DNA of 63,998 nt, the filler included, from Globobulimina sp. (lineage: Eukaryota), in NCBI GenBank assembly GCA_003354225.1. It is 15 parts of 15 records of this genome, joined end to end, with 100 filler letters (N's around TTAATTAATTAA, not from the genome) between each part and the next. Parts side by side here need not be neighbours in the genome. Positions count along the whole stretch, not along the records: positions 59,860 to 63,998 come from PIVH01001564.1; 14 more parts are not named here. One strand, given 5' to 3'. The notes beneath the pieces were generated by a model, which saw only the letters and a list, made by a program, of their open reading frames with translations, made no database searches and was not told where the DNA came from. Both the position numbers and the translations under genes were made by a program. Shown piece after piece: positions 500 to 63,998 of this stretch (the stretch's first letter is position 1; every line of letters begins with the position of its first letter).

Positions 500-3400
500 A
501 TGCTGTCATCTTACCTTTGTATATTACTAATATTGAGCTTTACAATTAACGCATACATTCGAGGTAAATGTGCACCTTCCAATTCTACAAAAGAATTGGA
601 GAGAAGCAACATATATAATAAACTATCCTATAAACTTGAAAAAATCCAATATAAACGAAAAATAATTTTAAAAATAAACTCCCTCATAAACTCTTTGCCT
701 TTATCAAATTTAATTTTATATATCCTCCTATATTGTAATCCCCTCCTTTATCAAATAAATCCTAACTATACAGAACAGCCGCAATATCGCAATATAATGG
801 AGAATACAAACAACAAACCAGATGAACATATACAACCAACTAAAAAAGATCGATATAAAAACAAAATCACTGTTAACATTAAAATTAAACAATCGCAGTT
901 CCAACGGGAATCGGTACCGGTGAATCGCCAGAAAATGTTCCATATTAAGGATAATATTGATTTACGTAAACGTGGTGTTATTAGCGCCTCTTTCGCAGAG
1001 GAGGTAACATTCCCAGGTACAGCACCACAATGGATCAAACCAGCATTAATTGTGAAAGTACCCGCATTTAAGAAGAATAAATTATTTTATTATTCGCCTG
1101 ATTGGAATGATGTGTTTCCAGAACGCAAAGCCAATGAAATTCCAACAGTAAAGCCAGCGATTCCTCCTTCTCCTCCAAATGTATATACCAGAGGCGATAC
1201 CATATTGCCTGCCATCATTGAAAACAATAAAGAGTCATTACGACTCTCTCAATATCCAGTGCCCAAACAATCGAACCATAGTAAATATATCAAAAAAAGA
1301 CGAACAAAGAACAATGACAAAAGAAAGCAACCAATTCAAAAATCTGAAATTGTCGCGGATCAAATACGAAATATAAAGAAAACAGGTGCCTTCGTAAAAT
1401 ATGAGGTTAGAAATGGCGAAATATGGGATTTTAGATTCGATAAAATTGATTTAAAAAAAGCGGCCGTGGACTTAGACGAATATAAACAAGTATGGACGGC
1501 AGAGAATGAATGCGATATTAGCAATGTCAGAGTATCAGCAAATTCACTAAATATTTATTCCCCGGTGAGCAAATTCATGGATTTAATCAATGGTAAACAT
1601 CCCGATTACGCTCAAGCTATTAATATAATTTATAAATTTGCAAATACCAATCATCCCATTCATCGATTAGTTATCCATCATTTGGTGCCATCGACGATAA
1701 TTATTGATAATAAAATGATGTTACACTTAGACCCAATTGGCGGCTCCCGGACAGAGTCAATATTAATGGATTTAGATTGGAATGTTCCGTATCCGAAATG
1801 GCAGCACAATGATATCGAAATTACGTATATCAAAAAGCGATTAAACTGGAAACCAACAAATTTATGCTTATTCAACGTACCGCTGAGTATACTGAATAAC
1901 AATTCATTGCATCGAATATTAAACGAGAAAATAACAGCCGCTATAAATTCAACGTGTATCCTGTATACAATTATTAGTGCGATGGAAAACGACTATGCGG
2001 TGACGGAAATAAATTATATGCCATTACTTTTAGCATTTATTAGACCGCATGCGATCAAAATGGAGAGAATGGCAAAAGCTAAAATGGAATTAAATAAAAT
2101 TAGATCAAGGCCGGTACCAATGGATGAAGATTCGAATGAAAATACAGCGGACCTTAGTGATGACTCCGTAAATGCGGATCTATGGTATGACAATCTGACG
2201 AATAATATAAATGGAGAGTATCTGGATATTATTAAATTAATGGAAAAACATGCCGTGTCCCCCGAAGACGTATTAAATAGCAATAAAGTTAGAAATCGAC
2301 GTTGGTGCAGAAACACATTATATCATATGAGTAATGCAACGGGCAGTAATTTTGCGTTGCCGTGGTGGATAAATGTCGAAAGTTGGGAGAAAATGATTCA
2401 TTTTATTGCTGCACAGAATTGTATACAGCAAATTGACAAACCATTCCGATCGGACTTAGTATTTGAAGATAAGAGAATATTTATCACACCGCTAACCTCC
2501 ACGGGAATAAACCCAAAATTATTAATTGGCGATGAAGCATTGGGATTCCCCGCAATCCAATTTAGATTTGGCACAATCATCAAATTAATGTGCTTATTGC
2601 GCAGCAATTTATATTATGATTTCATTGCATTCGCTAAAACCTGTGCCTGTGGGAAGAAATTTGTGCCGCATTCAAAATGTCCGGAACAAGAACATTATAT
2701 TAAAAAACAAATAAATCGAATTAGACAGAAATATAAAAAAAGATTAATCACAAAGAAAACGATGGAAAGACAGATCAGTAAAATTGTATCAATAAAATGC
2801 ATTCGCTGTGGATATTGGGGGCACTTTGGACATGAATGTGAGTGCAAAGACGATGAAGTCCGATGTTTATGTTGTTATCGATCCAGACATATCCGGACAT
2901 TGAATGCATTGGTATGCGGCGACACTGCCAATTTAATAAATTTATTTACCAATTTGAATGACTTAAATACGAATTGGACCGACGTGGATTTCGCCAATAT
3001 CGACCATTATAAATTAATACAGTGCACAGTCAATGACAAATTAAAAATTGAGGATCTCTATAAAATAATCGATACAAACGCAACCAACCAACAAATCGCA
3101 TTAAATCCGGTGATATCCCAAATTAACAATGAAAATGGAAATTATATTGACGTGGCACAGAATAATAACAACAATGAATTACAAGCTATTGATGCAGCGC
3201 TGAATAATAATAATAATAATACAAATCCGCAGCAAACCAATTCGTTAGAAACCACAGAAGAACAGCTATTGAATCATGGATTGGTGGATGAAGACTTTGA
3301 TACGGAGCCTCCTCAAAAAATCGAGTTCAACGAAACTAAGAGCATTATATTGGCGGAGAATAACACATTGAACCAATCAGAATCTATGAACCAATCACAA

Positions 3401-3871
3401 ATTGAATTGATGAATAATCCATATATTTCCCCATCGCTTATTCCTATGCTGACCAGCCAGGCAGTCCTCAATTCCCTGCAAAATGTTGAATTTACGGATA
3501 GTTTCTCGAATTTATTATCAAATAGCAACCAATCGCAAGATAATAATACTCCAACATCGCTGCCAACAACCTACGATTTTAATGATGAGCCAGAAATTAT
3601 TACCATTGCACCCAGTAATCGCCCAAGAAAGCCACAACCAAAGAAAGCATTACATTCGGTATCAATTGCCCCAAATATACCAAAATATAAAGACCGAAGT
3701 TCCAGCGAGTCGTTCCGAGTGAATATGCTCAGTGAAAAAATTAATAAATCAACAACTGACAACAAGATCGATAACAAATTGCCATTCAAGAATTTGAGGA
3801 AAAAAGCAAAAAAATCCAATGCAAGAAAACGACAACAACAAAAGTCCGATATTAGAAAAGAAGCAAAATGA
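500..3871 (+). mobile_element. Probable non-LTR retrotransposon ORF1 (gag-like, zinc knuckles), 1123 aa
   Basis: Intronless 3.4-kb ORF; CIRCGYWGHFGHEC (CX2CX4HX4C) followed by CLCCYRSRH...C, then a long N/Q/S/K-rich disordered tail; next ORF overlaps at ATGA. Confidence 0.6.
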
Positions 3872-4179: not shown

Positions 4180-4279
4180 NNNNNNNNNNNNNNNNNNNNN
4201 NNNNNNNNNNNNNNNNNNNNNNNTTAATTAATTAANNNNNNNNNNNNNNNNNNNNNNNNNNNNNNNNNNNNNNNNNNNN
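4180..4279. other. Artificial contig linker (N44-TTAATTAATTAA-N44); identical copies start at 8458, 12735, 17012, 21288, 25564, 29840, 34115, 38390, 42665, 46940, 51215, 55488 and 59760
   Basis: 14 identical 100-nt N-flanked spacers with stops in all six frames; intervening contigs fall in length from about 4179 to 4172 nt. Confidence 0.99.
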
Positions 4280-8457: not shown

Positions 8458-8557
8458 NNNNNNNNNNNNNNNNNNNNNNNNNNNNNNNNNNNNNNNNNNN
8501 NTTAATTAATTAANNNNNNNNNNNNNNNNNNNNNNNNNNNNNNNNNNNNNNNNNNNN

Positions 8558-11500
8558 TGTTGCCAGCACTTATTTAATTTGGCAAAACATTGCGATAAAA
8601 ACTTATACACAAACTCAACAATGTGCTCATAATAATGCGGCGAACACAATTGCACAAAGTTCATGAAAAAATGCTTGATGATAATGGATAAATGCGACAA
8701 TGGCAATTCCTGCCAATATGCGGTGACAGACTCAATCATCATATTCATGGCGTTTTTGTTTGCAAAAAATTGTTTATTAAAATACGACGAAACTGCCATA
8801 ATCCGACAGACGTAATCGCGAACATTTTGGATCCAAATCACAGCCTTTTCCAACGGCAATATCTCCTTTGGTTTGGCCATTGGATTTCGAACCAAATCAT
8901 CATATTTCAATCCATAGATATTGTACAACGATTTGACATCCAATGCATTCACAATGGAGTGGTGGCTGACAGATAATTTTGATTTAAACTCAGCAGTGTA
9001 CATATACGATAATAATTTGTTGCATTTCAATACATTGGCAAACACCGCACAAAATAAGGGCCACGAGGCAATATCCACAGCACCGTTGTCATTCGCACCA
9101 TAATTGCCTTTACCATAAACTTTGGGCAATCCGTCTAAATTTGCAGTGTGGAATAAATCTTTTAAACCAGTCTCGCCCTCAGATAACAATGACGCTGTCA
9201 ACGTAGACCGCAATATATCTAATACTGTGCGTATATGATATGCAAATCTGACCCTTTGGCCCATGCCGCCAACGTCTTTATTCATGCTGTAATTGGGGAA
9301 TTGGATCATTTTTGCAAATAAATTACTGTCATTCAGCACATTTTGTATTTCCGCGCAATTAAAATTATCAATCACATCTTTTAACAAATCGGACAACACT
9401 TTGCTGCGTTTATTCGTGTCATTCAATCCATTGCTAATACACACCAATAACTCGAATAAATGACACAGCGGACCTTCAGATATATCCATAATAGAAGCCA
9501 TATACACACCATTGGCATTGCAAGCGAGTTTGTTTTGATGTTGAGCTTCGTTTTCGTTTGCAATCGATTTGAAAGTGCTAAAATTTGCCTGTATGATTTG
9601 CATAACCTGCTTCCATATCGGCTCAATGAATTGGACACAAATATGTGGTATTCGCTTCGCAATATGCAACAATGCAAAAGCAATCTTGCGTTTATGTGCC
9701 ACTGCGTTGCATTTAATATCGTAGGCATCCCTGGCATTGGGCGCTAATGGCAGCGGTTTGGGGAAATCAGTCAGTAATTTGTCGAATGTCTTTTGTAAAT
9801 ATGCAGTTTTCCGGCAGTATAATGGCACTAAATACGATAATATGGGATAGATACGAGACATTAATTGCGTATCAAAACTATTCTCTTTCTCGTTACACGT
9901 CCAATTTAATAGTATTTGGTGCAATTGTATCACCATATTAATTAAAGGCGAGTTATCATCAAATAATGCCTCGTCGATGGTATTCTTGTTATTGGTTTGT
10001 CTTTTTTTCTTTCGTTTGTCGCGTTTAAATTTATAATTGATTGCATTTTCAAAAATAATCCGATAAACATCGCACAGTCCGTCCAAAGCAATGTATCTCT
10101 CGTTATTAATGGTGGAGTGTCCGATGGAATTCACATTTGTTACATCACGGTCGCAATTTAAAATGCTGAGAGTAAACTGTCCGATACATTCCATGCCGCC
10201 ATACGGCGATAACACAAAACATTGCTGTAATAAATGCGATAGCTTACTTTTCAACGTAGTACGGCAATTTGCCCATTCTTGCTTCGTTTCAAACGATTGC
10301 AAATCATGCCATTTGACGCGAAAATGGTTTAATACATATTTCATGATTCCAATGATAATCGATTGGAATTTGTCAGACTGTCCCAGTACACCATCGCTTG
10401 CTGAATAACCAATCATCTCTAAAGTGACAATTTCGTGCAATAAATACGACCATATGTTCATGGATCGTAATCGTATGCGCAAATCACAAGATTTCATACA
10501 AGATTCGCTGAGTCCTAGCACAATATCACGGATTGACTGCGATAATTCTCGGTTTTTAGGGTCTTTATTGTCTTTTTTAGGATGGATTTTATCTGTGTAG
10601 TCTGCCAATAATTTGCTGAATAGCTTTATTTTTCGAGTCATACATTCCAACATATAATCCAATCGCTGTAATGCTAAATTATTCTCCTCCTGATTCGCAT
10701 TATCATTGTCTTGATGGGTCATTAGATATAAACCCTTTGCAGTTTCCAGCTCAATGGACCACACTGTCAATATAACTCGTTGTTGTTCGATCTTATCATC
10801 CTTTAGAAAGTTATAATAATTTAATTTGCAAAAATGCAAACAAGTAAGAAATTTCTTAACGTAACAGAATAGTTATTCAATTCAGAAAATTTGCGCATAA
10901 AAAAATAGATATTTGATAGTAAAGCATAGCGATAAAATTCCTCATAGCATAAGGGGACGTTGCTATGTTTGCTGGTTTTGGCCACGGACTGCAATATTTT
11001 AGCTAAACCAATCAAGACCGGCGTGTCCAACAAAATGGTTCTTAAAGGAAATTGATTTAAATATTTCGGCAAAGCCTCCAGGCATCGTTTTAATATGTTT
11101 TGTGCAATTTGCACGTTATTATTTTCTTGATTATTGTTGTTATTTTCAAATATTCGCTGATAACATTGAGCCAACGCGGTACTGAATATTTGCATGATTT
11201 GCTTATTATTTCTCATTAATTCATCTTTGATTTGTTTTTTTCTCTTTTCGGGGATAATTTGTCGTTCACCACAGTAAAAATATAAATCTTTTAAAATAAT
11301 AAACAATATTTCGAATGATAGGGGATTTTGCTGTGATATTTGAAACAATGATGGCAGCAAATTGGTCCATTCATGCGGCCAATTATAGATAGCTAAGGTC
11401 ACAATTAATTCACTTATTTTCTCTTTTAATAATGTTACATTTGATGCATTGGAGAGGTTATTGAATTTAAATAAATGGATTGCTAAATCTTTTAAATCTT

Positions 11501-18197: not shown

Positions 18198-20979
18198 ATG
18201 ACAGCAGGAGCACATTTATCATTTCTTTTATTTTTTGCAGTGTTATTAAATCTAACAACATGTCATTTAAAATGTGGCCATGATACTTTTGAGCACCAAA
18301 TCTATCGAAATATCCGAACAAGTCTACCTCGACAAAACAAGAATATACTGACAAGAAATCAACGTAATTTACAAGATGCAGCAAATGATAATTTACCCGC
18401 AGATAATAACAATTGGGATAATATACGAATTGCATTCAACACAGAAGGTTTACTCTCTGGATGGACCAACACAAACTTTAAAAAATGGTTTGCCGTCGAT
18501 GTAATACCGGCAGCCATTGAATATTTACAGCAAAGTTTGTATCTAATTTATCTTAAACCGATCCTTTGCAGTTACACACTTTTATTTTATAGTCATTAAA
18601 GTTCGCCCAATCGACGGCAATTTAACCTTAGAGAGGAAATGTAGTTCGTGGCTAAATGAAGCAGAAAATAAATGCAAATCGTTATCGCATTCGTACAGAT
18701 CATGCAGTGGCTATTTTGACATCGAAGAATATTATTTCGATGAAATATATCTATGTCCAAATGGCGATGAAAGTTGTACACTGTCTCAAAGTGGCGGCGG
18801 CACTGCACATGATTTAACATTATATTTCGTGGGCAAATCATCAGGCGGTGGATGCTCCGGTGTGTACGGATACAGTTCCTATTGCCACAGCAATCTGTAT
18901 GACCGACCCATTGCAGGCTTTATAAATTTATGTGAGCAGACCTTGTTAGATGAAGGCGTTTATTTTACGTGGGAAAAGGCAGTGACATTGGTAGTGCACG
19001 AAGTGTATCACGTGTTAGGTTTCTCATCCACGGGATTTGCCTATTTTCGACGCAATGACGAGGCGCGAAGTGCAAGGTCGCCCCGCCACGGCGGCGATAA
19101 TGGGGATGGCGATGAACATGATGCTAATTTTGGCGATGTTTTACATAGTAATGAACGCGGCAGACATTATGCCTATGGCAATGATACGATAATCTATAAA
19201 TATGTCGCAAAACGAGAGAAAACCGCTGCATTTATTGTATTACCTACGGTTTTGACCGTAATTCGTGAGTTTTATAATTGCTCCACAATGATTGGACTGG
19301 AGTTGGAAGATTTTGGTGGCTCGGATACTGCGTCGAGCCATTGGGAACAGCGTATTTTATCCATGGAGTTTATGATTGGATATATCTCATCGGCTGCACC
19401 GGTTTCTATATTCTCATTCGCTGTGTTTGAAGATAGTGGATGGTACCAAATGAATTGGGAGTATGCCACGATACCACCATATGGTTTGTACTCTGTATTG
19501 TAAAGCCGGACAAAAGTGTTTTCGTGTTTTGGCATTACGGCTTTGAATGCTTTGAGTAGACAGTTTTTCCAAAGTAAAGTAAAGTGCTTACGGAATAATG
19601 GCAGCTTGTTTTGTGTAACATTGAACATTCCCCTTTTTGAGGCTTCTATTGTTGCAAAATTAAATATCAATCATGTTCTGTGCAAAGGTAAATCGTTTGG
19701 GTGTGATTGGTATGAAGAGAAATGTATAGTTGCTGTAGGTAATAAATTAAAAGCCTTAGACGAAGATATGTATTGCACAGAAGATGTAAAATATGCGTGC
19801 GCCGCCGATTACGTTGGCAAATCAAATTGCGAGTTGAAGGAATATACGGATGGCTCATTGCCATCACCATATCAATATTTTGGCGGTTTCGGCGATAACA
19901 TAACTGGCGGTGTCTTAGGATACGCTGATTTTTGTCCAATGTTTTACCATTATTCAAATGGTGACTGTCGGATTACTGAATCTTCGCACCTTTACGACTC
20001 ATTTGGTGCACAGATATGTCCACAATGTAAATGTAATGAAATGTATTCACATGATTTTAAAAAAAATTATGCAATTTGCTATCAATCGCAATGTGCGCAA
20101 AATTACTTATATTCTGACATAATATCTTCATTCGATTACAACGACAATGAATATTATAATGATTATAGTGATTATGTAGCGATACGAATAAAAATATCAA
20201 ATGACGAATATGATAAATATGAATATATTACCTGTTTTAGATTCGAATCTGATGAATATAAAAAAACCTCATATTATTCGTATTACATAAAATGTCCCCA
20301 ATTTGATGATATTTGCTATAATAAGAATCCATGGATGTGCCATGGCCACGGTATGATTAATCCGGATGGCGGAGGCGATGAATGTTTTTGTAATCATGGC
20401 TACATTGGATGTGATTGCACCATTCGCAATACACAAGAAAATAAATGGGACAGCGATGCCATAGACAGTACGTGTACGTATACGGAAGAAACAGTTGATA
20501 CATTTGGCTCAATGCCTGCACAAAATGAGAAGGATCTTAATTGGGATTATTTAGGTTTGGTGAATGTAACCATGCAAATTGATAATCGATATACGATTGA
20601 AAACATTATCAAAACATTGCGGCTATGGGTTGCCATCGATGTTAAAATACATGAAGAAAATGTATGGATTCAATCGTATCAAGATATGGATGAAAATAAA
20701 TTCAACTCTCTTTCTGGCGATATCCAAAATGATGAGGATGTTCAAAATTATTCCATCAGTATTGCTTATTATGATGATCAGAATCAAAATAAAATCAAAC
20801 CGGATTTATTAGTACATGAGTTTCGTTATTTATTCAACGCGGATTCGAAGAAAAAAGCAAATGATAATAGGTTTATATTGTATGATATTTATAATATCAA
20901 AGATCCAGACTCTGGTTGTAATGTTATAGCACCACGGTTTATTTTGTTGTTCTCGTTTGTGTTGATTATGTTATATTAA
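18198..20979 (+). CDS. Leishmanolysin/GP63 (M8) metalloprotease with EGF-like domain and hydrophobic C-terminal tail; introns 18535-18592 and 19484-19687
   Basis: Signal peptide, CGHD propeptide, RPIAG.IN.C, HEVYHVLGF, ELEDFGGSDTASSHWEQR, FEDSGWY, YGKSFGC and ADFCP motifs. Confidence 0.92.
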
Positions 20980-27193: not shown

Positions 27194-29517
27194 TTATTCT
27201 TCATCACGCGTAAGAATGATAGGTACGATCCGTGAAGTACTTGCAATAGTATTTTGCCTATGAATTGTAATATTTTGTATATTATCTTTTAAATAACTTA
27301 ATTCTTGCAGATTATTAAAAAAACCTTTTGTTACACATATCTTATATCCAAGACTCATTCCGTTGAAGGCAAATGATAATAATAATAGAAATACTACTTT
27401 TTCATGTATTAAACCATAGAAATTCAAAATAAAAAATGGTAAATCTTCACATAAGGCAACAAAAATAAGGGCTGCTTCTTGGCGAACAACTTTGGCCAAT
27501 ATACTCATTCTAAATGAAATTTGACGATGTGTTGATGATAACACACTTAACTTTCTTTTTGTTCGCGGTGTACGAAGTACTGAATCTTCGTCGGAATCCC
27601 ATTCACTATCTTCATTATTGGTTGGCATTAATTTTTCAATGCCATTGATCATACCGGATTTTAATTGGATATAACACGAGAACATATTGCGAATGGTGAT
27701 GGTCAGATGCGCAGTAAACACAAAACTTGAAAGTACAGATATCGCAAAATATAAAATAATAAATGTGTTCGTATAAACACTGTTCGCAGAAATTATAGTG
27801 ATTAAGGATAGAATATCAGTCACATAATCTGCCAAACCAATCATTGTTGAGATTGCATCCGAACTTAACGATATAAATAATCTTCTTTTTTCTTGATTTA
27901 ATAGTTTTTTCGATTCATCGTTTAAATCTTCACCATTTGTCTTCATATCGTCTTGTTGCTTAATAAATTTTTTACAGAATTTAACAATAATCCAAATAAT
28001 ATATATTAATATAATTAAACTGACCATTCCACCTAATCCATACAACGCAATTTGCAACGATGAATAGCCAGCATCACTCACTGCATTTGGGTCATTTGTC
28101 ATATAATCACTTCTTGGTGGAATTATATTATTTAATATAAACTCTGCTGGCCACGAAATATCATTTTCATTTAATACGATAGAATTTGGTGGTTCGAAGT
28201 AACCAATTTTTGATATTTTATTTTTTGCATAATTACAATAACTGAATAATCCACTCACACGATCGCCATTATTATCAAATGATACATTCCCAGATAAGCC
28301 AATAAATGATACCTCGGATTTTAATATATCCGCATATCGCTGACTAAAATTACTCATTGATATATTATTGATGTGTTGGTTAATATTATCCAAATAATAC
28401 CCATGTAAAGCAATATATTTATCAGTTGCGGATAAGACTGCGAGGACATTGTCGTAGCCATAGGTTGCTATGGTCACATTATCTGACGCTATCAATGGAA
28501 ATCTGTCGCGTAAATCACTATACTTTGATATAGATACATTTAAAGGATATGAATACGGCAAATTATCTAAACTCGTCGTATTGTATACACTCCATCTGCA
28601 GGTCCCGATTATTCCATCATAGGATGCGTTTAACAGTGAATTTGAATGATATATACTTAAATACCATAATGAATCTGTAGCAAGATAATAATATGGGAAA
28701 GAATGCATATTATAACCGGCTAATTGCTGTGTCAATAAATTGAAATCGTTGACATAGATAACTAATATAAATATATATAAACCGGATTCTTTCATTGATT
28801 GTGCTGCCTCAATAACTGTAATATCATCGTCTTCAATATAACTAAATGCCTAAATTATAAATTATTTGTATGCACAGCACGGAAATACATATTTTTGTTG
28901 TATACCTGAACGGAAATATTATACACTTCACCCCATTTTGTAACGGATCGAGCTAACGATGTGCCATAACTTGATGACATATGAACCACTCCAACCTGAT
29001 CCCATCCAAAGTGATTACATAATTTGATTTGTCCCAATGCTTGCATGCCATCGTCAGCGATGGAACGATAAAAAGACGGATACTCAGTTAAAAAAGTGGA
29101 CGTTGCTGATCCAGAAATATGCAACAAATCAAATGCTTCGAGCATTGGTGACAGCAACATCGACAATGATGAATATATCATACCGAATATTATCGGAATG
29201 GTGAAACCAAGATCTTGGAAATTTGATGACATATTTAATCCAGAAGTTAGGGTTAATTTCGATGTGGAATCTGTCTCTAATAAGATCATTGATAATGTAC
29301 AGTTATTTGCAATCAGATTTGGAAATAAAGTCGCTGCTTCACTCATTGTACCTGCATTAAAATCTGATATAGCGGTTTCCAATGCATTTATTGTTTGAAC
29401 GCCACCACCATTATACTCTCCTTTGTTGGTGCTTTGGGCTAAATGTCCAAATTTTAAATGACAACATTTACAAGAAATAATTAATAACAGCATTGAAACA
29501 GATTTATAGATCGACAT
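27194..29517 (-). CDS. Membrane receptor: signal peptide + Venus-flytrap (ANF-receptor) ectodomain + about 5 TM helices; intron 28850-28905
   Basis: HISGSATSTFL...YPSFYRSIADD..Q, FGWDQVGVVH....YG, YGYDNV, FIGLSGNVSFDNNGDR; 56-nt intron joins VQ|AFSY. Confidence 0.8.
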
Positions 29518-47039: not shown

Positions 47040-49865
47040 TATAGATAAGATTAACGAGGAAAAAGACGTTGAAACTAATATTAATGCAATTTATATCGAT
47101 ATCGGTGTGCCAGATTATTCATTATCAATTATTGAGAAATTATTTGAAAAAAAAGTCCGAAAAAATGAAGAAAAAGAATCATATATTTGTAAATCATTCC
47201 AGTCAGAAATACCAATTTATGCTAAAAAAACAGTAATTTATGATACATTAAATATTACAGTTTATAAATATGAATGGGAATCATTCCCTGAACATCAATA
47301 TAAACATTTAATGTTACGAGCTGAAACAAATCAGTTTGTTAGGTTTTTAATAACGTGCTCATTTAATAATGTTTTCAAAGATAACATAAAATTGGCATCA
47401 GATAAAGATGAAATTATTATCACCAAATTGGCAAAATCAAAGAAGTCAAAAATTAACAGTAATGAGGCAAACAATGTTGGCAGAATTGAGCTAAAAATCA
47501 GAGTTAAACCTTATCAAAAAAGAGATTTACTGCTTGCAAAAGTTTGTGCGGATAATTATAAGTGGAGTTGGAAAGTACAACAAAGAAATACGTCAAAAAA
47601 AGACAATAATATTTATTTGAAATTGGCTGAAAAACAGTATGTATTTTTTGTTTTTCATTTATATCATAAATTGATTGTTAATGCCTCAGCTTAAGCGGAA
47701 TTAAAACAAATTATGACCAAATATATATAAAAAATGATTTACAGCAAATATCAAATGTAAAACAATTACATAATAAGCTTTTTGATGAATTAAAGGTTCC
47801 ATTTTTTATGGATATGAATTTCTTACCATTTAACGAATCAATAATGTCAATATCATTGGCACAAAATGAGAGTAAAAATAGTAATCAAGATGAAAATGAG
47901 GATAATCGCTATGTAAAATGTTTTGAAACATCATTATTTAAACGCGTAATTGATATGAAATTAACCTCAGATTATGAATCATATTTATTTTGCCCAGATA
48001 GAAAAATATCATTTAGGAATATTGAGCAAGGAAACTTACCAAATTGTGGTTTTGTTGCATCTCTGGTAAGTGTTGCACATAAAAAAGCATTATTAATTAG
48101 GAAAAATATATTTAATATTGATAACATGAATGAATTTGGAATATATACAGCAAATTTATATTTTAATGGTATTTTAACAGAGTACGTGTTGGACGATTTT
48201 ATACCATGTTATTGTTATGGACATAAACAGCCATCATTCACAAAACATGTTACAAATATAATATCAAATAAAAATAGAAAAAATAGAAAAATAAATAAAA
48301 AGAAAAGTGGAAATAAATACAATATAATATGGGTATTATTATTAGAAAAATGTATGGCAAAATTGTATGGAGGTTATGATCGTTTATCAAATATGTATGC
48401 CGTGGATGCATTTGCAATATTAACTGGATATCCAAGTGTCGAAATTGATTATGCGACAATGGATAATGCTGAAAAGCAAAGTGCAATTTGGAATAAATTA
48501 ATCAAGTTTGGAAACAATAAAAATATATTATTAACGTCGTCATGTCACCCAAAGCGAGGTCGTAAATCAATAAACGATTTATTTGGTTCGTCGTGGAAGC
48601 GCAAAAATGAATTTTTTGGTTTGTTTGCTAATAAAGACGGTCATGTTTGGAGTATAATTCGTGTCGTTGAGTATAAAACTATAAAATTAATTTGTTTACG
48701 CAATCCATGGGGTGAAACATTAGAAGATAGTTCAGCTGGCAATGGGTTACCTGGCGATCGATGGAAAGGTAAATATTCGAGATATGATACAATGTCATGG
48801 ACTAAACAATTGCTACAAGAAACCAAACCAAATTTGAAATATAATGATGGAACATTTTGGATGTCGTTGAATGATTATATGCATTATTTTTATAATTTAA
48901 GCATTTGCTATTGTTTCAATAATGATTATTCGAGGTTAGCTACAAAATGTAGTATTAAATATTGTGTATCGTCAGAGAATCAAAGTATGTTATTTCCAAA
49001 AATTATAATTGATATAAGGTTAAACGATGAGATGGATGAAAAGGTGAAGGATGAATTGGAAAATAAAGGATTAATATTAAAATGGGTTGGTATCATTCAG
49101 CAGGATGTGATGAATAAAAATAACACTTTTGATATAAAACCTACTGAATATTTAGATACATGTTTGTTTATTGGCGTTATTGATGAAAATAATAATATTA
49201 AACCAATAACATTAACTAATGTAAGCGCAGGAGCGAGAAGAATAAATTATGGTAAACAAGCATTAAATATTCGATTGAAAGCAAATAATAAATATATATT
49301 AATACCATACAGCACTGGGTTAAGACATGCTTTTTGTCCGTCTTCATCCGGATCTGATACAAATATTACAATAACTTCATTTATTTCGGGTAATAGAAAT
49401 AATGCGTATAATATTAAAATGATAAATAATGATTTTGTTAATGTACAACAAATATACGACATATTGTCAAATTATATAAAAATATCAAATGATTTCAAAA
49501 AATCAAAGAAAAATGAGAATGATTTTATATTTACAGATAAAACATTTAATGGCATGATAATTGCAGCTTGGTTCCATAAAAGAAATGATTTTAAATTTAA
49601 AACAAAAATAAAATTTAAATTAAACAATTGTTTACCTGCAGTTGGCTTCGATTACAATAATTATTTAATAAAACATAGAAAGAAATTTTTTGGCCAAAAA
49701 AATAAAAATGATCCTAATAAAGCTAAAAAATATTCGTGGACTTTTAATGTTGAGAATTATATATCAAATCAAGTGTGTTTAGTTATTATGAAAAAAATAA
49801 AAAACGAATCAAATCAATTTGGATATTCATATTCCTTCGATAATGGCAACTTTGAATCTTGCTAA
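47040..49865 (+). CDS. Calpain-family cysteine protease (5' partial); intron 47637-47689
   Basis: Catalytic triad motifs QGNLPNCGFVASL, GHVWSI and LRNPWG; WVLLLEKCMAKLYGGY; DGTFWMS. Confidence 0.92.
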
Positions 49866-57610: not shown

Positions 57611-59759
57611 TCACCATAATATACATTTATTTTGTGGATTCATAGCAGATCCAACGGGGCAATTAAATGTGTCTGCAAAAGCTTGCGCATTTTGTACAAC
57701 AGCAACCATTCTGGGCTTTTCCGGGGAATGAGTCCAATAATATCCAGGTTGTGTAATTTTATCATCGATCATAAAACTTTTTTGTCCAAATATCACAAAA
57801 AGTCCTTGCAAATCCGATCCAATATAATTTCTCATGATTTAGATGTTGTAATCCTGGCAATTCCACCTCATCCCAATAATCATTGCTTTCTTCAATATAT
57901 TTAGTGAATGCAAGGTATGATTCTTGAACTCCTGCATTGTCCGCACAATTTTCAGTGATTGAATTTGTTCCATTTAAAAATATACCATTTACACTCAAAT
58001 TATCATATTGTTTTATAAAACAGTCCATTTTTTGTGCATAATTTGTAAGTGTTGAATTTGTCCAAATTGACACTTTTGTTCCATTCCAATTAAATCCAGA
58101 TCCCGAAGGGTCAAATGCGTGAGAAATCTCGTGCCCAATGACACCGCCAATTGCTCCAAATTTCATGGCCGAGGGATAATTCATACGGAAAAAGGGAGAA
58201 ATTGATATTGTCCACGGCATAACAAAGAAATTTCCATTTTCATTTGCTATTCTTTGACGATTGTAAAATGCAGTAATTTGGGTCAACCACGAATCCTCAT
58301 AACGACCATGAATAAGTCGTTCCGGATGCGATAAAGCTAGCGGCCATTGAGGGGAAACCAAATTAGTTTCTACATTTCCTTTGAATCTTAGTAACATTTG
58401 TGCTTGTTTGAAATCTATTAATTCTTCATAATTTTGCACAAAATTAGATTCATTTAATGTCATATTCAAATAATAAAGATTCAAATTGCTAATATTTCTA
58501 ACTTTTGGCGGTAAGCCAGTGTACATTCTCATACTTTGTGCTTTTAACAATACATTGTTTTTGGATTCTTGGTCCATCCATTCAGCGGATTCGATCAATG
58601 GAATTGCCCCTTTTTGCATGATATAATGTGAGATTTTGTCAATTTCAGTTTGAGCGGCAATTCCATACATTTTTTTATCCAAAATATGAGCGTAAATATA
58701 ATTAAATCCATTTTTGGTTAATTCAAAACAAAACTGCTTGCGATCAATTTTATTACTTTGATGTAATGATTCTTTGTTTGATAAAATACTCAAATATAAA
58801 AAGTACTGTACAGTGATTGGTGGCGTACTTTCAATCAAAACACGAAAATCATTAAAGAAATCAATACCATTTTGCAAATAAATAATATATTCAATCTCTG
58901 ACGAAATGGATTCAATTTCAAATGTATTGAAAATTAATTGGGAATAGTTCAAAATTGAGGATGCCCCAAAAATATCATTAATTTCATCAAATTGCATCGA
59001 TGATAATGTATCTGCGTTATATGGCTCTTTTTGTATTGTGCTGATATTTGCAATTTTATTCATAAAATCAATGATTTCATCAGAGATAATATTTCTTTCC
59101 GTTTCATTTAATCCGAATAATAATTCAAATTCTTTTTTGTATACATTATCCATCATATTTTTCCAAAACGTCACATTAAATCCAATCCATATATTTCCAT
59201 TTTGATAAATTGAAGGAATTTGTTGTGAATAAGTGTTTAAATTAAAAAATAAATTCCATCTTCGACGAGATAACCATTTTAATGCATTTTGGAAACGATG
59301 AATTTCAATGAATGTCCAATTAATATTTAAATCCATATTATTAATAATATTTTGAGTGAAATTCACATTTTCAATGAATTTATTTAATAAAATGTTTGCT
59401 TCAATTTCTTCTTTATTTGCATTTGATGAATAACACGAATCGTAAAATGTAATCACTTTTCGAATGCTACTTTCATTTAAATTCAATCCATTCTTATTTG
59501 TAAATATTGCTTCTAAGAATGCATCTTTTTGCAAATCAGCCATTTTATCTAAAGCTCTATATTGGTGCTCTCCATTTTGCGCCAATTTATATGAATATTC
59601 TTTGGTAAATCCATGACATGAATAACTGAAGAAATCATTGCATGGATCATAGGATTCATCCATATAAGATAAGATTTCTTGAGATAATTCAATACATTCT
59701 TGCCTAATATATCCATGTATGATTGGCATTGCCCATAAGCTTGCTTTAAATCTGCAAGT
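57611..59759 (-). CDS. Neprilysin/ECE (M13) metalloendopeptidase (5' partial) with a frameshift near 57762-57785
   Basis: DPCNDFFSYSC, TAFY, FGAIGGVIGHEISHAFD, ENCADNAG; the terminal HSP...R...FNCPVGSAMNP..KC.LW lies in the +1 frame. Confidence 0.9.
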
Positions 59760-59859
59760 NNNNNNNNNNNNNNNNNNNNNNNNNNNNNNNNNNNNNNNNN
59801 NNNTTAATTAATTAANNNNNNNNNNNNNNNNNNNNNNNNNNNNNNNNNNNNNNNNNNNN

Positions 59860-60229
59860 TTTTTTTCAAAACCTGCTTTTTTTTTTTTTTTTTTGTGTCT
59901 ATCGCCTGTTTTTCCAAAAGTGCAATGGATGTAAAGCATCTCAAAAATTTCCTTTTTGTGTCTTCGTCGAATATTCCTATCGGTAACTGTTTTTTTGTAT
60001 GGGATTGGCGTTTTGGTGTGCGATTAAATTCAGTTTTCCCTCTTCCTCCGCATTTTTCCTCTGCAGGCAAGTTGAATCTCACTTTTCTAGTGTTTTTGCA
60101 ATGTACTGCAGTTTTTTTTGAGCTTGTACTCAATGTGCGTGTGCATTTTAATTTTAATCTGGTTGCTGGTTGTAACTTTACTATGCGTCGACGCCATTTA
60201 TTGTAGCTAACTCTTTGAAGAGATTTCAT
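59860..60229 (-). CDS. Very basic ORF divergent from the transposase (3' partial)
   Basis: About 123 open codons from ATG to the contig end; K/R-rich; contains KVRF. Confidence 0.4.
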
Positions 60230-60380
60230 AATTTTGGAATTAGGGCTATTTAATTATATTTCATAATGACGTAATTATTACATTTAAAAATAATAATTCA
60301 TATTACATATTACATCTTCAATAATTATATCATCTTCAAAATAATATCTGCATTCTACAACATACGCAAATATCAAAGCA

Positions 60381-63300
60381 ATGGAAACTATCTCAATGGT
60401 TGAAGTATATAAAAGCATCGCAATATGTAAAGAAGCTGAGATTATATCAAAAATTGTATCGGAAAAAACAATCCGTTTGAAACAAGCCATCGATATCGGA
60501 AATAAAGGAACATTGGATACAAGTCATCATATTACGGTTTTTATTACAAAATGGTGGGATGAAAAAACATTAATTTTGGATGGTATTGACACAAATATGA
60601 CTGTATTGGGACTCAAACATCGGATAAAAGAAAAATGCATTACATTTAATATACAAACGGAAGATATGGCATTGTATAGATTACATTGCGACAATGTAAC
60701 ATTAAAAAAATGTCGCATATCAAATTTGGAAACAATAATGATGAATCCTAAAAATTGCATAAAAGGTGGAGGAATGGATAGATTTGACATTGTTTATGGT
60801 GACATTGACAGTGACAGTCAAAATGAAATGGAAATAACTCGCAAACGCAAATTGCCTCTCTTGCCACGTCCGCCAAGAAAAAGACAAAAACTTGGTAAAA
60901 AAAATAACAATTTCACTGATCACTTTGAAATCAGAACACTAACATCAGAGTCAACTTCTCCAGTCAACTTCTCCAGACATGGAGCATTCAATAAATCCAT
61001 TTTTTTTTCGAAACGTAATACAAATAAACATAATAAAAATATATCAAATAATAAAAATATATCAAATGTATCAATAACAGACAGTGAGAGCGAAGAAAAT
61101 ATTGCAGTAAGTCTAAATGAGTCAGAATATACTGCATCTGAAAAAGAGTTAGAATATACTGCTGACCTAAGTAGTGATGATGATAGTGATTGGGGCAAAT
61201 CAGAATTATTACGTTTAGAACAAAAATATGAAAAAAAAATCAAAAAATTAAAAGATGATCTTTTGAAAGAAAAACGTAAATGTAGAGACTTATTACATTT
61301 AAAAGAAAAACATGAAGAAATTATCAAAGATTTAAAAGATGATCTTTTGAAAGAAAAACGTAAATCTAGAAAGGGTAAAAAAAATACAAACAAATTCAAG
61401 GATAAAACAACTGAATTACCAACAAAATCAAATTCTAAATCATCAAGAGTGAGAAGTTCTAAAAAGATTGCAGCTGGTATCAAAGATTTATCGCATTTGG
61501 AAAAAGTTTTAAGACATATGCCAGATATAAAATCAGAGTATAATGATAATATCATTAATGGATACATCAAAACAAAAAATAAAAAAAATGCAAAATATAA
61601 AAGAAATATGGGATGGTCATTGCGTTCAGCCGCTATTATTTGTCATTCAAACAGCAGCAGACGTTCATATAATCTTCTAACTACTAAAAAATATAAAATA
61701 TGGGATGAAGAGACTCAAGAATTAGTGGATGTGGACTTAGGAGATATAAAGTCCTTAAAACCATCATGTTACAACACAATATTAAAAAGAATTCAACTAT
61801 TTTATGTAAATCATTCAGGATATAAATGGAATCCGTCAATTGACTATAAAATAATACAAAGATCAATAAAACATGTAATAAAACAAGATATAAAGTTCGC
61901 TATCAAATATAAGGTAGAATCAAATGAACTAGTTCGAAATTTAGGAGAATTTGTAAACAACAATCCAAATGCATCAATATATCGAAGTAAATCTTTCATC
62001 TTTTTTTTTAGTGACGGCACCGGAGTTCGAAGTGGACGAGATGGTTTATTAGTATCTGCAGTATCTACCACTCATTATGAGGATCATGCAAGCTCTGTGT
62101 TCACACAGACAGATGTGTTCGCAGCAGAGATTAAAGAAAAAGGTGACAGAGCGCTGCAACATTATAAAGAAGCAAATAAAGAACTAAAAGAAATCATAGC
62201 AACAGGATCAATTACAGTTAACATTGCTGAAAACTTCAAAGTGGTTGAGAGTTATTCAGGTGCTCAAATGGTTGCAGATATGGGATTATCACCAATGTGG
62301 CGAAATACTAAAGGATTAAATTCAACAATATTTGATTGCGTTGGATGTGTTTTATCTGGAAATAAAAAAAAACAAACATTTATTTCAAAGACAAATTGGA
62401 CTCAGTATATTGATATTGCTAGTAAGACACCAACAGAAATACAAAAATCAAAAAGCAAAAAACAATCATATACACCAATCACACCAGAAATCGCTGTTAA
62501 CGAAGGTAAAAAAATACAGGAGATTTTCGATGCTGGCAAAAACAAATGGAAAGAAACCAGACACAATTTTCATCGAAACAAAATAGCAAATTCACAGGGT
62601 TCTGTATTTTTAGGTTCGCCAGTAGCTGAGTTAGCATTTGGTCCGATTTTACCAGTATTGCATATTACATTATCATTACATGATGTTGCAATCTCCAAAT
62701 CTATGGTAAAAGCAACATCACGTGGTTTTACAATGGGTCCGTCTGTTTTCGATGCGTTCGAAGCAATGGGCCCATCAACATTTCTCAAATCCACTAGGTT
62801 GCAGCTAGAAAAACTTGCAATCAAAAAGAGATCAAAACCTATACATTCCACAGGAACAATGGCAATATATGGAATTAACAGCAAATATAATAAACGTTAT
62901 TTTAACGAAATGGCAAAATCAATTGCTAATACTTCAATAACTAAAAAAAACAAAATAACATCAAATGATAAAATATACCATCAAATATTATGTAGTATTA
63001 CATATTTAGTCTTATTTTTTGCATCATATCCTATATTAATCTCAAAATTAAAGATATTAACAGAAGACCAACATAAAAAAGCAGAGGAATATGGAAGAGC
63101 TGCTTTAACTTTGGTCAAAGAATTCCATACCTCATTTTTCTGGGGATATTTGTGGATATGTTGCAAATCTCTGCCACTATTTATTAGATGGTCTATTGAT
63201 ACAATAGGGAAGAATCAATTCATAGCATATGACGGCAGACATGAATCAGATTTGAAGGATTGGAAACGAGAACATAAATTAAGAAATAATAATTCGAAAA

Positions 63301-63779
63301 AGTCTTTGCAAAGTCTAGGAAATAGAATGGATATGAAACGTAAAGCAACCATTATTACTGGTTTATGGAATTATAAAACATCAGAAGAACAGGCACGAAA
63401 ACAACGCCATTTATATCACCAACGAAAATTATTTGCACACGACATAATAAATGAAAATGAATCACATTTGTTGTATGTACAAGAATTATTTGATTTTGCA
63501 CTTAAAAAAAGAAAAAAAATGCCAGAATCATTCATGAACATTATAAATGACCCAAAAATAACAAAAGATTGTAAACAGACAGAAACATTATTACAGCAAA
63601 TGGGAGAACGAAAGCCAGAAAATGATGGAAAAGACAAAGAAAAAAGTAACGAAGAAATACGAAACGATCCGGAGTTAGAACAAGTTGACGCTGAAGTATT
63701 GTTTTCAAATGACAGTAACAGTAACAGTCACAATCACAATCAAAAAAGAGAAATTTCGTCATCAGATGATTTTGAATAA
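60381..63779 (+). mobile_element. RAG1/Transib/Chapaev-type DDE transposase fused to an N-terminal ubiquitin-like domain, 1132 aa
   Basis: Ordered motifs S...Y..L, FSDG (D545), VAD (D633), CxxC (653/656), PVLH (H761), HES..K (E955); Ubl at aa 51-130 ending GG; intronless. Confidence 0.78.
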
Positions 63780-63921
63780 TCAAATTAAATTTGTTTTGTT
63801 AATTGTAATTATCGCATTGTAAAATTGTAACATTCCTAATCATATTATTTGTTAATTCTTAATTGTTAAATGTTTTGCGTTGCGATGGCTCCGAATGTGC
63901 GCTCATCATCGCATAAATTCG

Positions 63922-63928
63922 CACTGTG
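63922..63928 (-). repeat. RSS-heptamer-like candidate transposon terminus (CACAGTG on - strand)
   Basis: CACTGTG on + strand 142 nt after the transposase stop, followed by GC-rich GGCCA. Confidence 0.5.
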
Positions 63929-63998
63929 GGCCATTCCAAATCTATCTATTTGTTTTGCGTTGTTTGTGTGTGAGTCGTTGAGAGAGAGGCATCGATAT

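Follow-up and report, generated by a model that had tools for sequence, protein, structure and literature searches.

An intact foraminiferal gene whose core may be a very diverged relative of RAG1/Transib transposases

The open reading frame and its relatives

The window analysed here is a stretch of 63,998 nt from a Globobulimina sp. assembly (GCA_003354225.1), and the gene in question is an open reading frame (ORF) at 60381-63779 (+) near its end, which a first-pass annotation had described as an intact RAG1/Transib-like transposase. The ORF runs from ATG to stop within a stop-free frame of 1144 codons and encodes 1132 amino acids (aa; protein P0001), in agreement with that description as far as intactness goes. 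An open frame of 1144 codons at ~31% G+C is far beyond chance, and the best homologue of the product scores E 6.9e-106, so the gene is genuine; it is also intact. Its G+C is 0.307 overall and 0.216 at third codon positions (GC3), while the longest frames of the other contigs have GC3 values of 0.201-0.521. All 10 of the sequence strings quoted for the proposed motifs are present, and D545, D633, C653, C656, H761 and E955 are found at exactly those residues. Our best explanation, which we hold tentatively, is a transposase-derived gene of the RAG1/Transib-CMC kind that is low in copy number, expressed and very far diverged. The features on which this explanation turns are the following.

59860-63998, unstranded: contig carrying the ORF, truncated by the end of the window; the sole true physical context of the gene
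60381-63779, + strand: the ORF, 1132 aa
62013-62015, + strand: codon of D545, candidate for the first catalytic Asp, with FIFFFS as the hydrophobic run ahead of it
62091-63743, + strand: core and tail, aa 571-1121, homologous to Bolivina argentea P0002
62277-62279, + strand: codon of D633 (ADMGL), proposed second catalytic Asp
62337-62348, + strand: C653-V-G-C656, a CxxC motif 20 residues past D633
62985-63041, + strand: conserved hydrophobic segment resembling a transmembrane (TM) helix, aa 869-887
63135-63179, + strand: FFWGYLWICCKSLPL, aa 919-933, the second most conserved block, containing C928
63243-63296, + strand: E955, proposed catalytic Glu, with the LKDWKRExKLRNN block, aa 958-972
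63870-63998, unstranded: high-depth tandem repeat ending the contig, recognised from unitig depth; not a demonstrable transposon end

The window is not a continuous piece of genome. Fourteen identical linkers (N44-TTAATTAATTAA-N44) split positions 1-63998 into 15 contigs of 4139-4179 nt, ordered by size, and because these are separate contigs that were concatenated, any neighbourhood across a linker is unreal. The gene had been presented as intronless in an intron-rich genome. That contrast falls away in a window of 15 separate contigs: stop-free frames of at least 378 aa are carried by 14 of the 15, so that a long uninterrupted ORF is unexceptional here.

Relatives of the ORF are few, and those of named source are all foraminiferal. 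A HMMER pass over 1,835,955,588 representative proteins returned only six at E ≤ 0.001. The best, P0002 from Bolivina argentea (625 aa), matches aa 571-1121 at E 6.9e-106 with about 40-41% identity (219 of 542 aligned columns). P0005, P0006 and P0007 come from Nonionella stella (E 1e-15 to 4e-8), and P0003 and P0004 are short NCBI proteins whose contigs measure 942 and 1138 nt. EukProt sets are largely built from transcriptomes, and as both named sources are EukProt sets, the relatives of the gene are probably expressed. Among the sequencing runs listed for the ORF contig there is no RNA run, which bears neither way on expression. A protein word index queried with the core or a four-sequence profile gave no match even at E ≤ 10, and scans of metagenome and prokaryote-genome contigs, made with a two-sequence alignment and with the single protein, yielded 273, 54 and 70 pattern stretches, none of them a relative by tblastn.

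A contaminant contig, from an animal or another non-host organism, was considered at this point. Fragmentation of the assembly is high, the ORF has no companion gene on its contig, and the contig occurs in one of three sample runs (one run has 93% of its words, the two sister runs next to none). Against this, the G+C of the contig (0.309) falls among those of the others (0.266-0.388), as does its composition generally, and for an M13 peptidase of the neighbouring contig the sole match at E ≤ 1e-20 is again from Bolivina argentea (49% identity, 90% coverage). With the ORF relatives and the M13 peptidase both pointing to Foraminifera, the assembly is foraminiferal and the ORF family is so far restricted to that group; contamination is scarcely credible, and the earlier placement of the gene in a non-animal eukaryote stands.

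The core and its candidate catalytic residues

The candidate residues occur in a fixed order: a hydrophobic run followed by D545-G, a second hydrophobic run followed by D633, the CxxC, a conserved Cys-Lys-Ser-Leu about 27 aa before E955, and a basic helix. With its contexts, this order fits a DDE enzyme and, judged by eye, presumably also the layout of RAG1. The likeness to the RAG1 core and to Transib (HzTransib, and BbRAG1L of ProtoRAG) comprises a core of ~600 aa, candidate acidic residues in the order D...D...E with hydrophobic residues ahead of each, a CxxC about 20 aa past the second Asp in P0001 (the spacing in RAG1 is 19) and, again by eye, a conserved Cys/His-Lys-Ser/Thr-Leu about 27 aa before the Glu with a basic helix after it. 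A hydrophobic strand leading into an Asp, as in FIFFFSD and QMVAD, is typical of DDE enzymes. The general D-D-CxxC-...-E layout is also shared with the CMC or 'CMCT' lineages (EnSpm/CACTA, Mirage, Chapaev, Plavaka, ESTA and Lanisha).

Conservation is highest just beyond the proposed Glu. The 15-mer at aa 958-972 is the most conserved of the family (12 of 15 positions identical, top 0.7% of windows) and starts three residues past E955, which is itself invariant in the three sequences covering it (P0001, P0002 and P0006). The FFWGYLWICCKSLPL block is identical at 11 of 15 positions, and its C928 is also present in Nonionella P0006. We take these two blocks to lie where the Glu helix of a DDE enzyme and the ZnH2 region of RAG1 would be. 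D633 is invariant in both covering sequences (P0001 and P0002), and its surroundings are only moderately conserved, the best 15-aa window being in the top 28%. Most plausibly, the core would descend from a transposase of the RAG1/Transib-CMC ('CMCT') kind as a strongly diverged DDE domain with an RNase H fold; D545, D633 and E955 would then coordinate a pair of metal ions for DNA cleavage.

Several properties of the core speak against this assignment. D545 lies outside the alignments of all homologues. The CxxC window is poorly conserved; the Bolivina protein reads C-L-G-I there and keeps the first Cys alone. The hydrophobic segment at aa 869-887 has a Kyte-Doolittle 19-aa mean of 2.15, and 2.36 in the Bolivina homologue. 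A TM-like segment of this kind would be unusual in a soluble nuclear enzyme, and it is unexplained if the protein derives from a transposase.

Evidence for and against RAG1/Transib kinship

The language-model comparison is where RAG1 comes up by name, its domain clusters being among the nearest named neighbours of the core. With aa 400-1010 as query, ESM-Atlas features gave RAG1_RNase_H, pre-RNase_H, ZnC2 and ZnH2 clusters as neighbours at 0.90-0.92, and 9 of the 10 best named neighbours fell in one family or clan; in one arthropod neighbour cluster, RAG1_RNase_H was present in 38% of members. For Bolivina P0002, too, RAG1 clusters came up, scoring 0.83-0.86, and 10 of 10 shared a family or clan. 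A Transposase_21 (tnp2) cluster stands at rank 22 among the neighbours of P0002, so the signal is not exclusive to RAG1; the same cluster is a point of likeness to CMCT. These scores must be read with care. Shared features number 143-156, against at least 170 expected for members of the same family, recognition for P0002 is 1790 against 2300 expected, and shuffled proteins attain a score of 0.9 in 4-10 of 100 cases. By the calibration of the tool itself such values mean 'chance hits or distant relatives', and we treat them as leads rather than tests.

Conventional homology searches did not bear the kinship out. Pfam hmmscan at E ≤ 10, run with the whole protein, seven family members and sub-regions, found no RAG1 or transposase family. 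RAG1, Transib and ProtoRAG chains are present in the PDB, and none of them was matched at E ≤ 10 in seven phmmer or hmmsearch runs against PDB sequences (queries: the protein, a four-sequence profile, four sub-regions and the Bolivina homologue). The foraminiferal protein differs from RAG1 and Transib in precisely this, that it has no HMMER-detectable similarity to Pfam or PDB sequences. Kapitonov and Jurka reportedly grounded the superfamily, in 2005, on statistically significant similarity between Transib and RAG1 over a ~600-aa core; the Pfam and PDB-sequence searches gave no significant similarity of the present core to either. Significant core similarity was found to the Bolivina and Nonionella proteins, which makes the ORF a member of a Foraminifera-restricted family. 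A PDB match to the kinetochore protein DSN1 (aa 585-670, E 0.0076) was rejected as chance: it was not reproduced with the Bolivina homologue, which instead gives an equally 'good' unrelated match, to orotidine monophosphate (OMP) decarboxylase.

Structure prediction was of little help. AlphaFold2 models of aa 400-1030 with three homologues and of aa 571-1132 with four are of low confidence, with predicted local distance difference test (pLDDT) scores of 37.4 and 38.5 and predicted template modelling (pTM) scores of 0.29 and 0.25, and both are nearly all helix past aa 700. Foldseek against the PDB and a wide VIA-align search, both run on the first of these models, returned helical-repeat noise alone and are uninformative on the fold.

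The sequence signatures of the clade are missing as well. A C(2)C together with an H(3-4)H motif is said to be common to all CMCT lineages and RAG1 (PMC12730594). Between D633 and E955, H(3-4)H is absent from both full-core sequences (P0001, aa 634-954, and the Bolivina protein). The C(2)C occurs once in P0001 (C653-C656) and not at all in Bolivina, so that the zinc signature of CMCT is incomplete in one protein and lacking in the other. SxxCxxC, described in PMC1131882 as perfectly conserved in Transib, is absent from P0001, whose CxxC has no Ser at -3. Finally, D633 and E955 are 322 aa apart, outside the distances from second Asp to Glu that PMC1131882 gives for Transib (206-214 aa) and RAG1 (253 aa). 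A Lys/Ser-rich insert at aa 675-735, delimited by eye, accounts for part of this excess. Each of these absences counts against membership of the clade.

Taken together, the claim of membership survives in part. The gene is intact and foraminiferal and has RAG1 clusters among its language-model neighbours; the lack of any Pfam or PDB match and the 322-aa spacing go the other way. Formal membership of RAG1/Transib is not established. Kinship is plausible, with leads that are weak and not independent of one another and with three clade-defining sequence criteria failed.

Many of the same observations would suit a lineage-specific foraminiferal protein of no transposase ancestry, largely helical and possibly membrane-associated, in which the D/D/E and Cys motifs are chance look-alikes picked out by eye, and we consider this a serious possibility. 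No profile or sequence search links the protein to a known family, neither the clade signature H(3-4)H nor a conserved CxxC is present, the TM-like hydrophobic segments are conserved, and both models, low in confidence as they are, come out almost all helix past aa 700. The ESM scores are compatible, by their own calibration, with chance or a distant relative, and the spurious PDB matches at E ~0.01 (DSN1 and, with Bolivina, OMP decarboxylase) are unreproduced between homologues. What such an origin leaves unaccounted for is that two homologous queries converge, among millions of clusters, on one narrow group of families, the RAG1 domains, that the proposed Glu heads the most conserved block of the family, and that the contexts FIFFFSD and QMVAD are typical of DDE enzymes.

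The long spacing raises a further alternative, a DDE transposase-derived gene from a superfamily outside RAG1/Transib-CMC, such as a hAT-like one, with a generic RNase H fold and a large helical insertion. In hAT elements a [C/D]xxH histidine is expected shortly past the second Asp, whereas the site reads CVGC in P0001 and CLGI in Bolivina and has no such His. The 322 aa between D633 and E955 are close to the 325 aa quoted for hAT in PMC1131882, and the missing CMCT zinc-motif signature and the Transposase_21 cluster at rank 22 could be read in the same direction, though that family is itself CMC. However, none of the Pfam models for hAT dimerisation, BED, MULE, P-element and other transposases is matched at E ≤ 10, and the ESM neighbours listed include no family of hAT type. 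We regard an origin in another DDE superfamily as improbable.

Resident gene or transposon

The earlier suggestion that the element is possibly active found no backing. The two flanks of the ORF (521 nt on the 5' side, 219 nt on the 3' side) have no inverted match to each other, with the reservation that the ends could lie past this short contig; neither terminal inverted repeats (TIRs) nor target-site duplications (TSDs) were found. That neither TIRs, nor a 5-bp TSD, nor a RAG2-like gene turned up on the contig may be a further difference from RAG1/Transib. The only other frame of the contig, at 59861-60229 (-), has no Pfam match. A RAG2-like partner could lie beyond this short contig; its absence here is nonetheless a point against the kinship. 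A tblastn search of P0001 against the other 14 contigs gave nothing better than E 6.3, so there are no paralogues there. The ORF is covered evenly, with a unitig depth of 7-11 that looks single-copy in the one run containing the contig, Logan depth not being a copy number.

The sole CACWGTG on the contig is a CACTGTG at 63922, 143 nt past the stop codon and within the last 129 nt. It sits in the terminal tandem repeat at 63870-63998, which has a period of ~140 nt, a unitig depth of about 60-90 in run X1, given as 59.7 for the last 129 nt, and joints of the 'goes back 128/129' type. This repeat is probably the reason why the assembly stops here.

In run X1, a second unitig covers window positions 61976-62096, with four differences in 121 nt and a depth of 3 against 7; it may represent an allele or a near-identical second copy.

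An active, autonomous copy of a Transib transposon could draw on the intact ORF, on the heptamer 143 nt 3' of the stop and on that variant unitig, if it is a second copy rather than an allele. But the flanks share no inverted repeat, the heptamer belongs to an unrelated high-depth repeat, the depth of the ORF is even and low with a paralogue in none of the 14 other contigs, and regions outside the catalytic residues are conserved across genera, which is a better fit to a host gene. We therefore consider an active copy highly improbable. Because it is low-copy, has no recognisable transposon ends on its contig, keeps its whole architecture across distant foraminifera and has relatives in two transcriptome-derived sets, the gene looks resident, and possibly domesticated, rather than an active transposon.

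From N to C terminus, the protein comprises a weak ubiquitin-like domain, a basic stretch resembling a nuclear localisation signal (NLS), a duplicated Lys/Glu-rich helical region and a basic pre-core region, followed by the conserved ~600-aa core and a conserved acidic tail. The parts ahead of the core are as follows.

60540-60746, + strand: weak ubiquitin-like N-terminal domain, aa 54-122, from sub-threshold Pfam matches
60840-60902, + strand: basic stretch RKRK...PRKRQKLGKK, NLS-like by eye, aa 154-174
61202-61369, + strand: tandem duplication of an 84-nt unit at 87% identity, encoding a pair of Lys/Glu-rich, heptad-like repeats of 28 aa
61272-61757, + strand: pre-core basic/helical region, aa 298-459, conserved with Nonionella stella P0005

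Over profile positions 2-68 of 72, residues 54-122 match Pfam ubiquitin (PF00240) at E 0.048, with 13.9 bits where 25.4 is the cut-off; they also match the Crinkler N-terminal domain at E 0.048, with 14.9 bits (cut-off 24.6). As header domains, both matches are therefore below the curated cut-offs. The PDB sequence search with this N terminus had no ubiquitin chain among its matches, and the domain was not seen in the Nonionella fragment P0005; a ubiquitin-like domain may nevertheless be fused to the core. The RAG1 N terminus, in contrast, carries RING/Chapa zinc modules (PMC4411706). The stretch at aa 154-174 has a putative role in nuclear localisation. The pre-core region is 34% identical to P0005 over 163 aa (one gap, E 5e-23). 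The alignment of the Nonionella fragment, from aa 298 onward, spans the end of repeat 1 through repeat 2. Since Nonionella aligns only from the end of repeat 1 on, the 84-nt duplication may be lineage-specific.

Programmed DNA elimination and nuclear reorganisation are known in foraminiferal life cycles. The protein could go one step further than a diverged transposase-derived gene product and be a conserved, expressed, low-copy recombinase, domesticated from a deep RAG1/Transib-like transposase with fusion to a ubiquitin-like domain and loss of the zinc site, and a candidate for a part in these processes. We think this unlikely. If true, it would be an independent domestication, parallel to those of V(D)J RAG1 and of ciliate PiggyMac.

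Known systems and the wider setting

Transib-type transposases had been taken to be described mostly from animals, which is outdated. A complete RAGL transposon (AanRAGL) is known from the pelagophyte Aureococcus anophagefferens through Tao et al. 2022 (PMC9435367), who also report RAG1L fragments in 'several other primitive eukaryotes'; RAG1L/Transib is reported there from a pelagophyte, fungi, plants and bacteria, and occurrence outside animals is echoed in PMC10462144. AanRAGL and the bacterial, fungal and plant Transibs are thus precedents outside animals, and include single-exon genes in a unicellular eukaryote (PMC9435367). Those proteins are recognisably RAG1/Transib-like (average 26% identity across the two groups), and the elements carry TIRs and 5-bp TSDs, joined in Aureococcus by a RAG2L partner (PMC9435367); no such similarity or element structure was found for the foraminiferal gene on its short contig. 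Several CMCT lineages are tied to RAG1 through HHpred-level similarity alone (PMC12730594), and this is the degree of divergence we would expect of the foraminiferal gene. It differs from CMCT in lacking the C(2)C and H(3-4)H signature and any match to Pfam Transposase_21 or another family.

With non-animal RAG1L/Transib in print (PMC9435367), the occurrence of a RAG1-like gene in a protist has ceased to be new as such. Judging by the titles listed, we found nothing in print on a foraminiferal RAG1/Transib, though the supplements of Tao et al. 2022 might list a rhizarian. What would be new is a HMMER-invisible rhizarian lineage with the zinc signature lost and a ubiquitin-like N terminus, conserved at low copy across Foraminifera. 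If the core does derive from RAG1/Transib, the clade would reach Rhizaria and gain the most divergent of its members to date, its canonical zinc-binding signature would prove dispensable, and Foraminifera, a group in which little is understood of the molecular side of genome dynamics, would have a candidate domesticated recombinase. If it does not, there is still a conserved foraminifer-only family of ~1100-aa proteins of unknown function, together with a caution that likeness to RAG1 motifs, by eye or by language model, can arise without detectable homology.

The remaining features of the window lie outside the gene. Its contig is joined to the preceding one by the last of the artificial linkers, and 5' of the ORF, on the opposite strand, a basic 123-aa frame extends into the poly-T/poly-A tract with which the contig starts. 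This frame has no Pfam match at E ≤ 10 and its coding status is doubtful. A second uninterrupted ORF, of 1123 aa at 500-3871 (+) on a contig of its own, is without a Pfam family at E ≤ 0.001 and is unrelated to the ORF at 60381-63779 (no tblastn match). The products of the remaining contigs are ordinary eukaryotic proteins. In coordinates:

4180-4279, 8458-8557, ... 59760-59859, unstranded: linkers, artificial joins
59760-59859, unstranded: linker N44-TTAATTAATTAA-N44 between the ORF contig and the preceding contig
8506-10722, - strand: exportin-5-like
19768-20979, + strand: leishmanolysin-like fragment
27194-28795, - strand: ANF-receptor-like fragment
47808-49865, + strand: calpain
57762-59729, - strand: M13 peptidase

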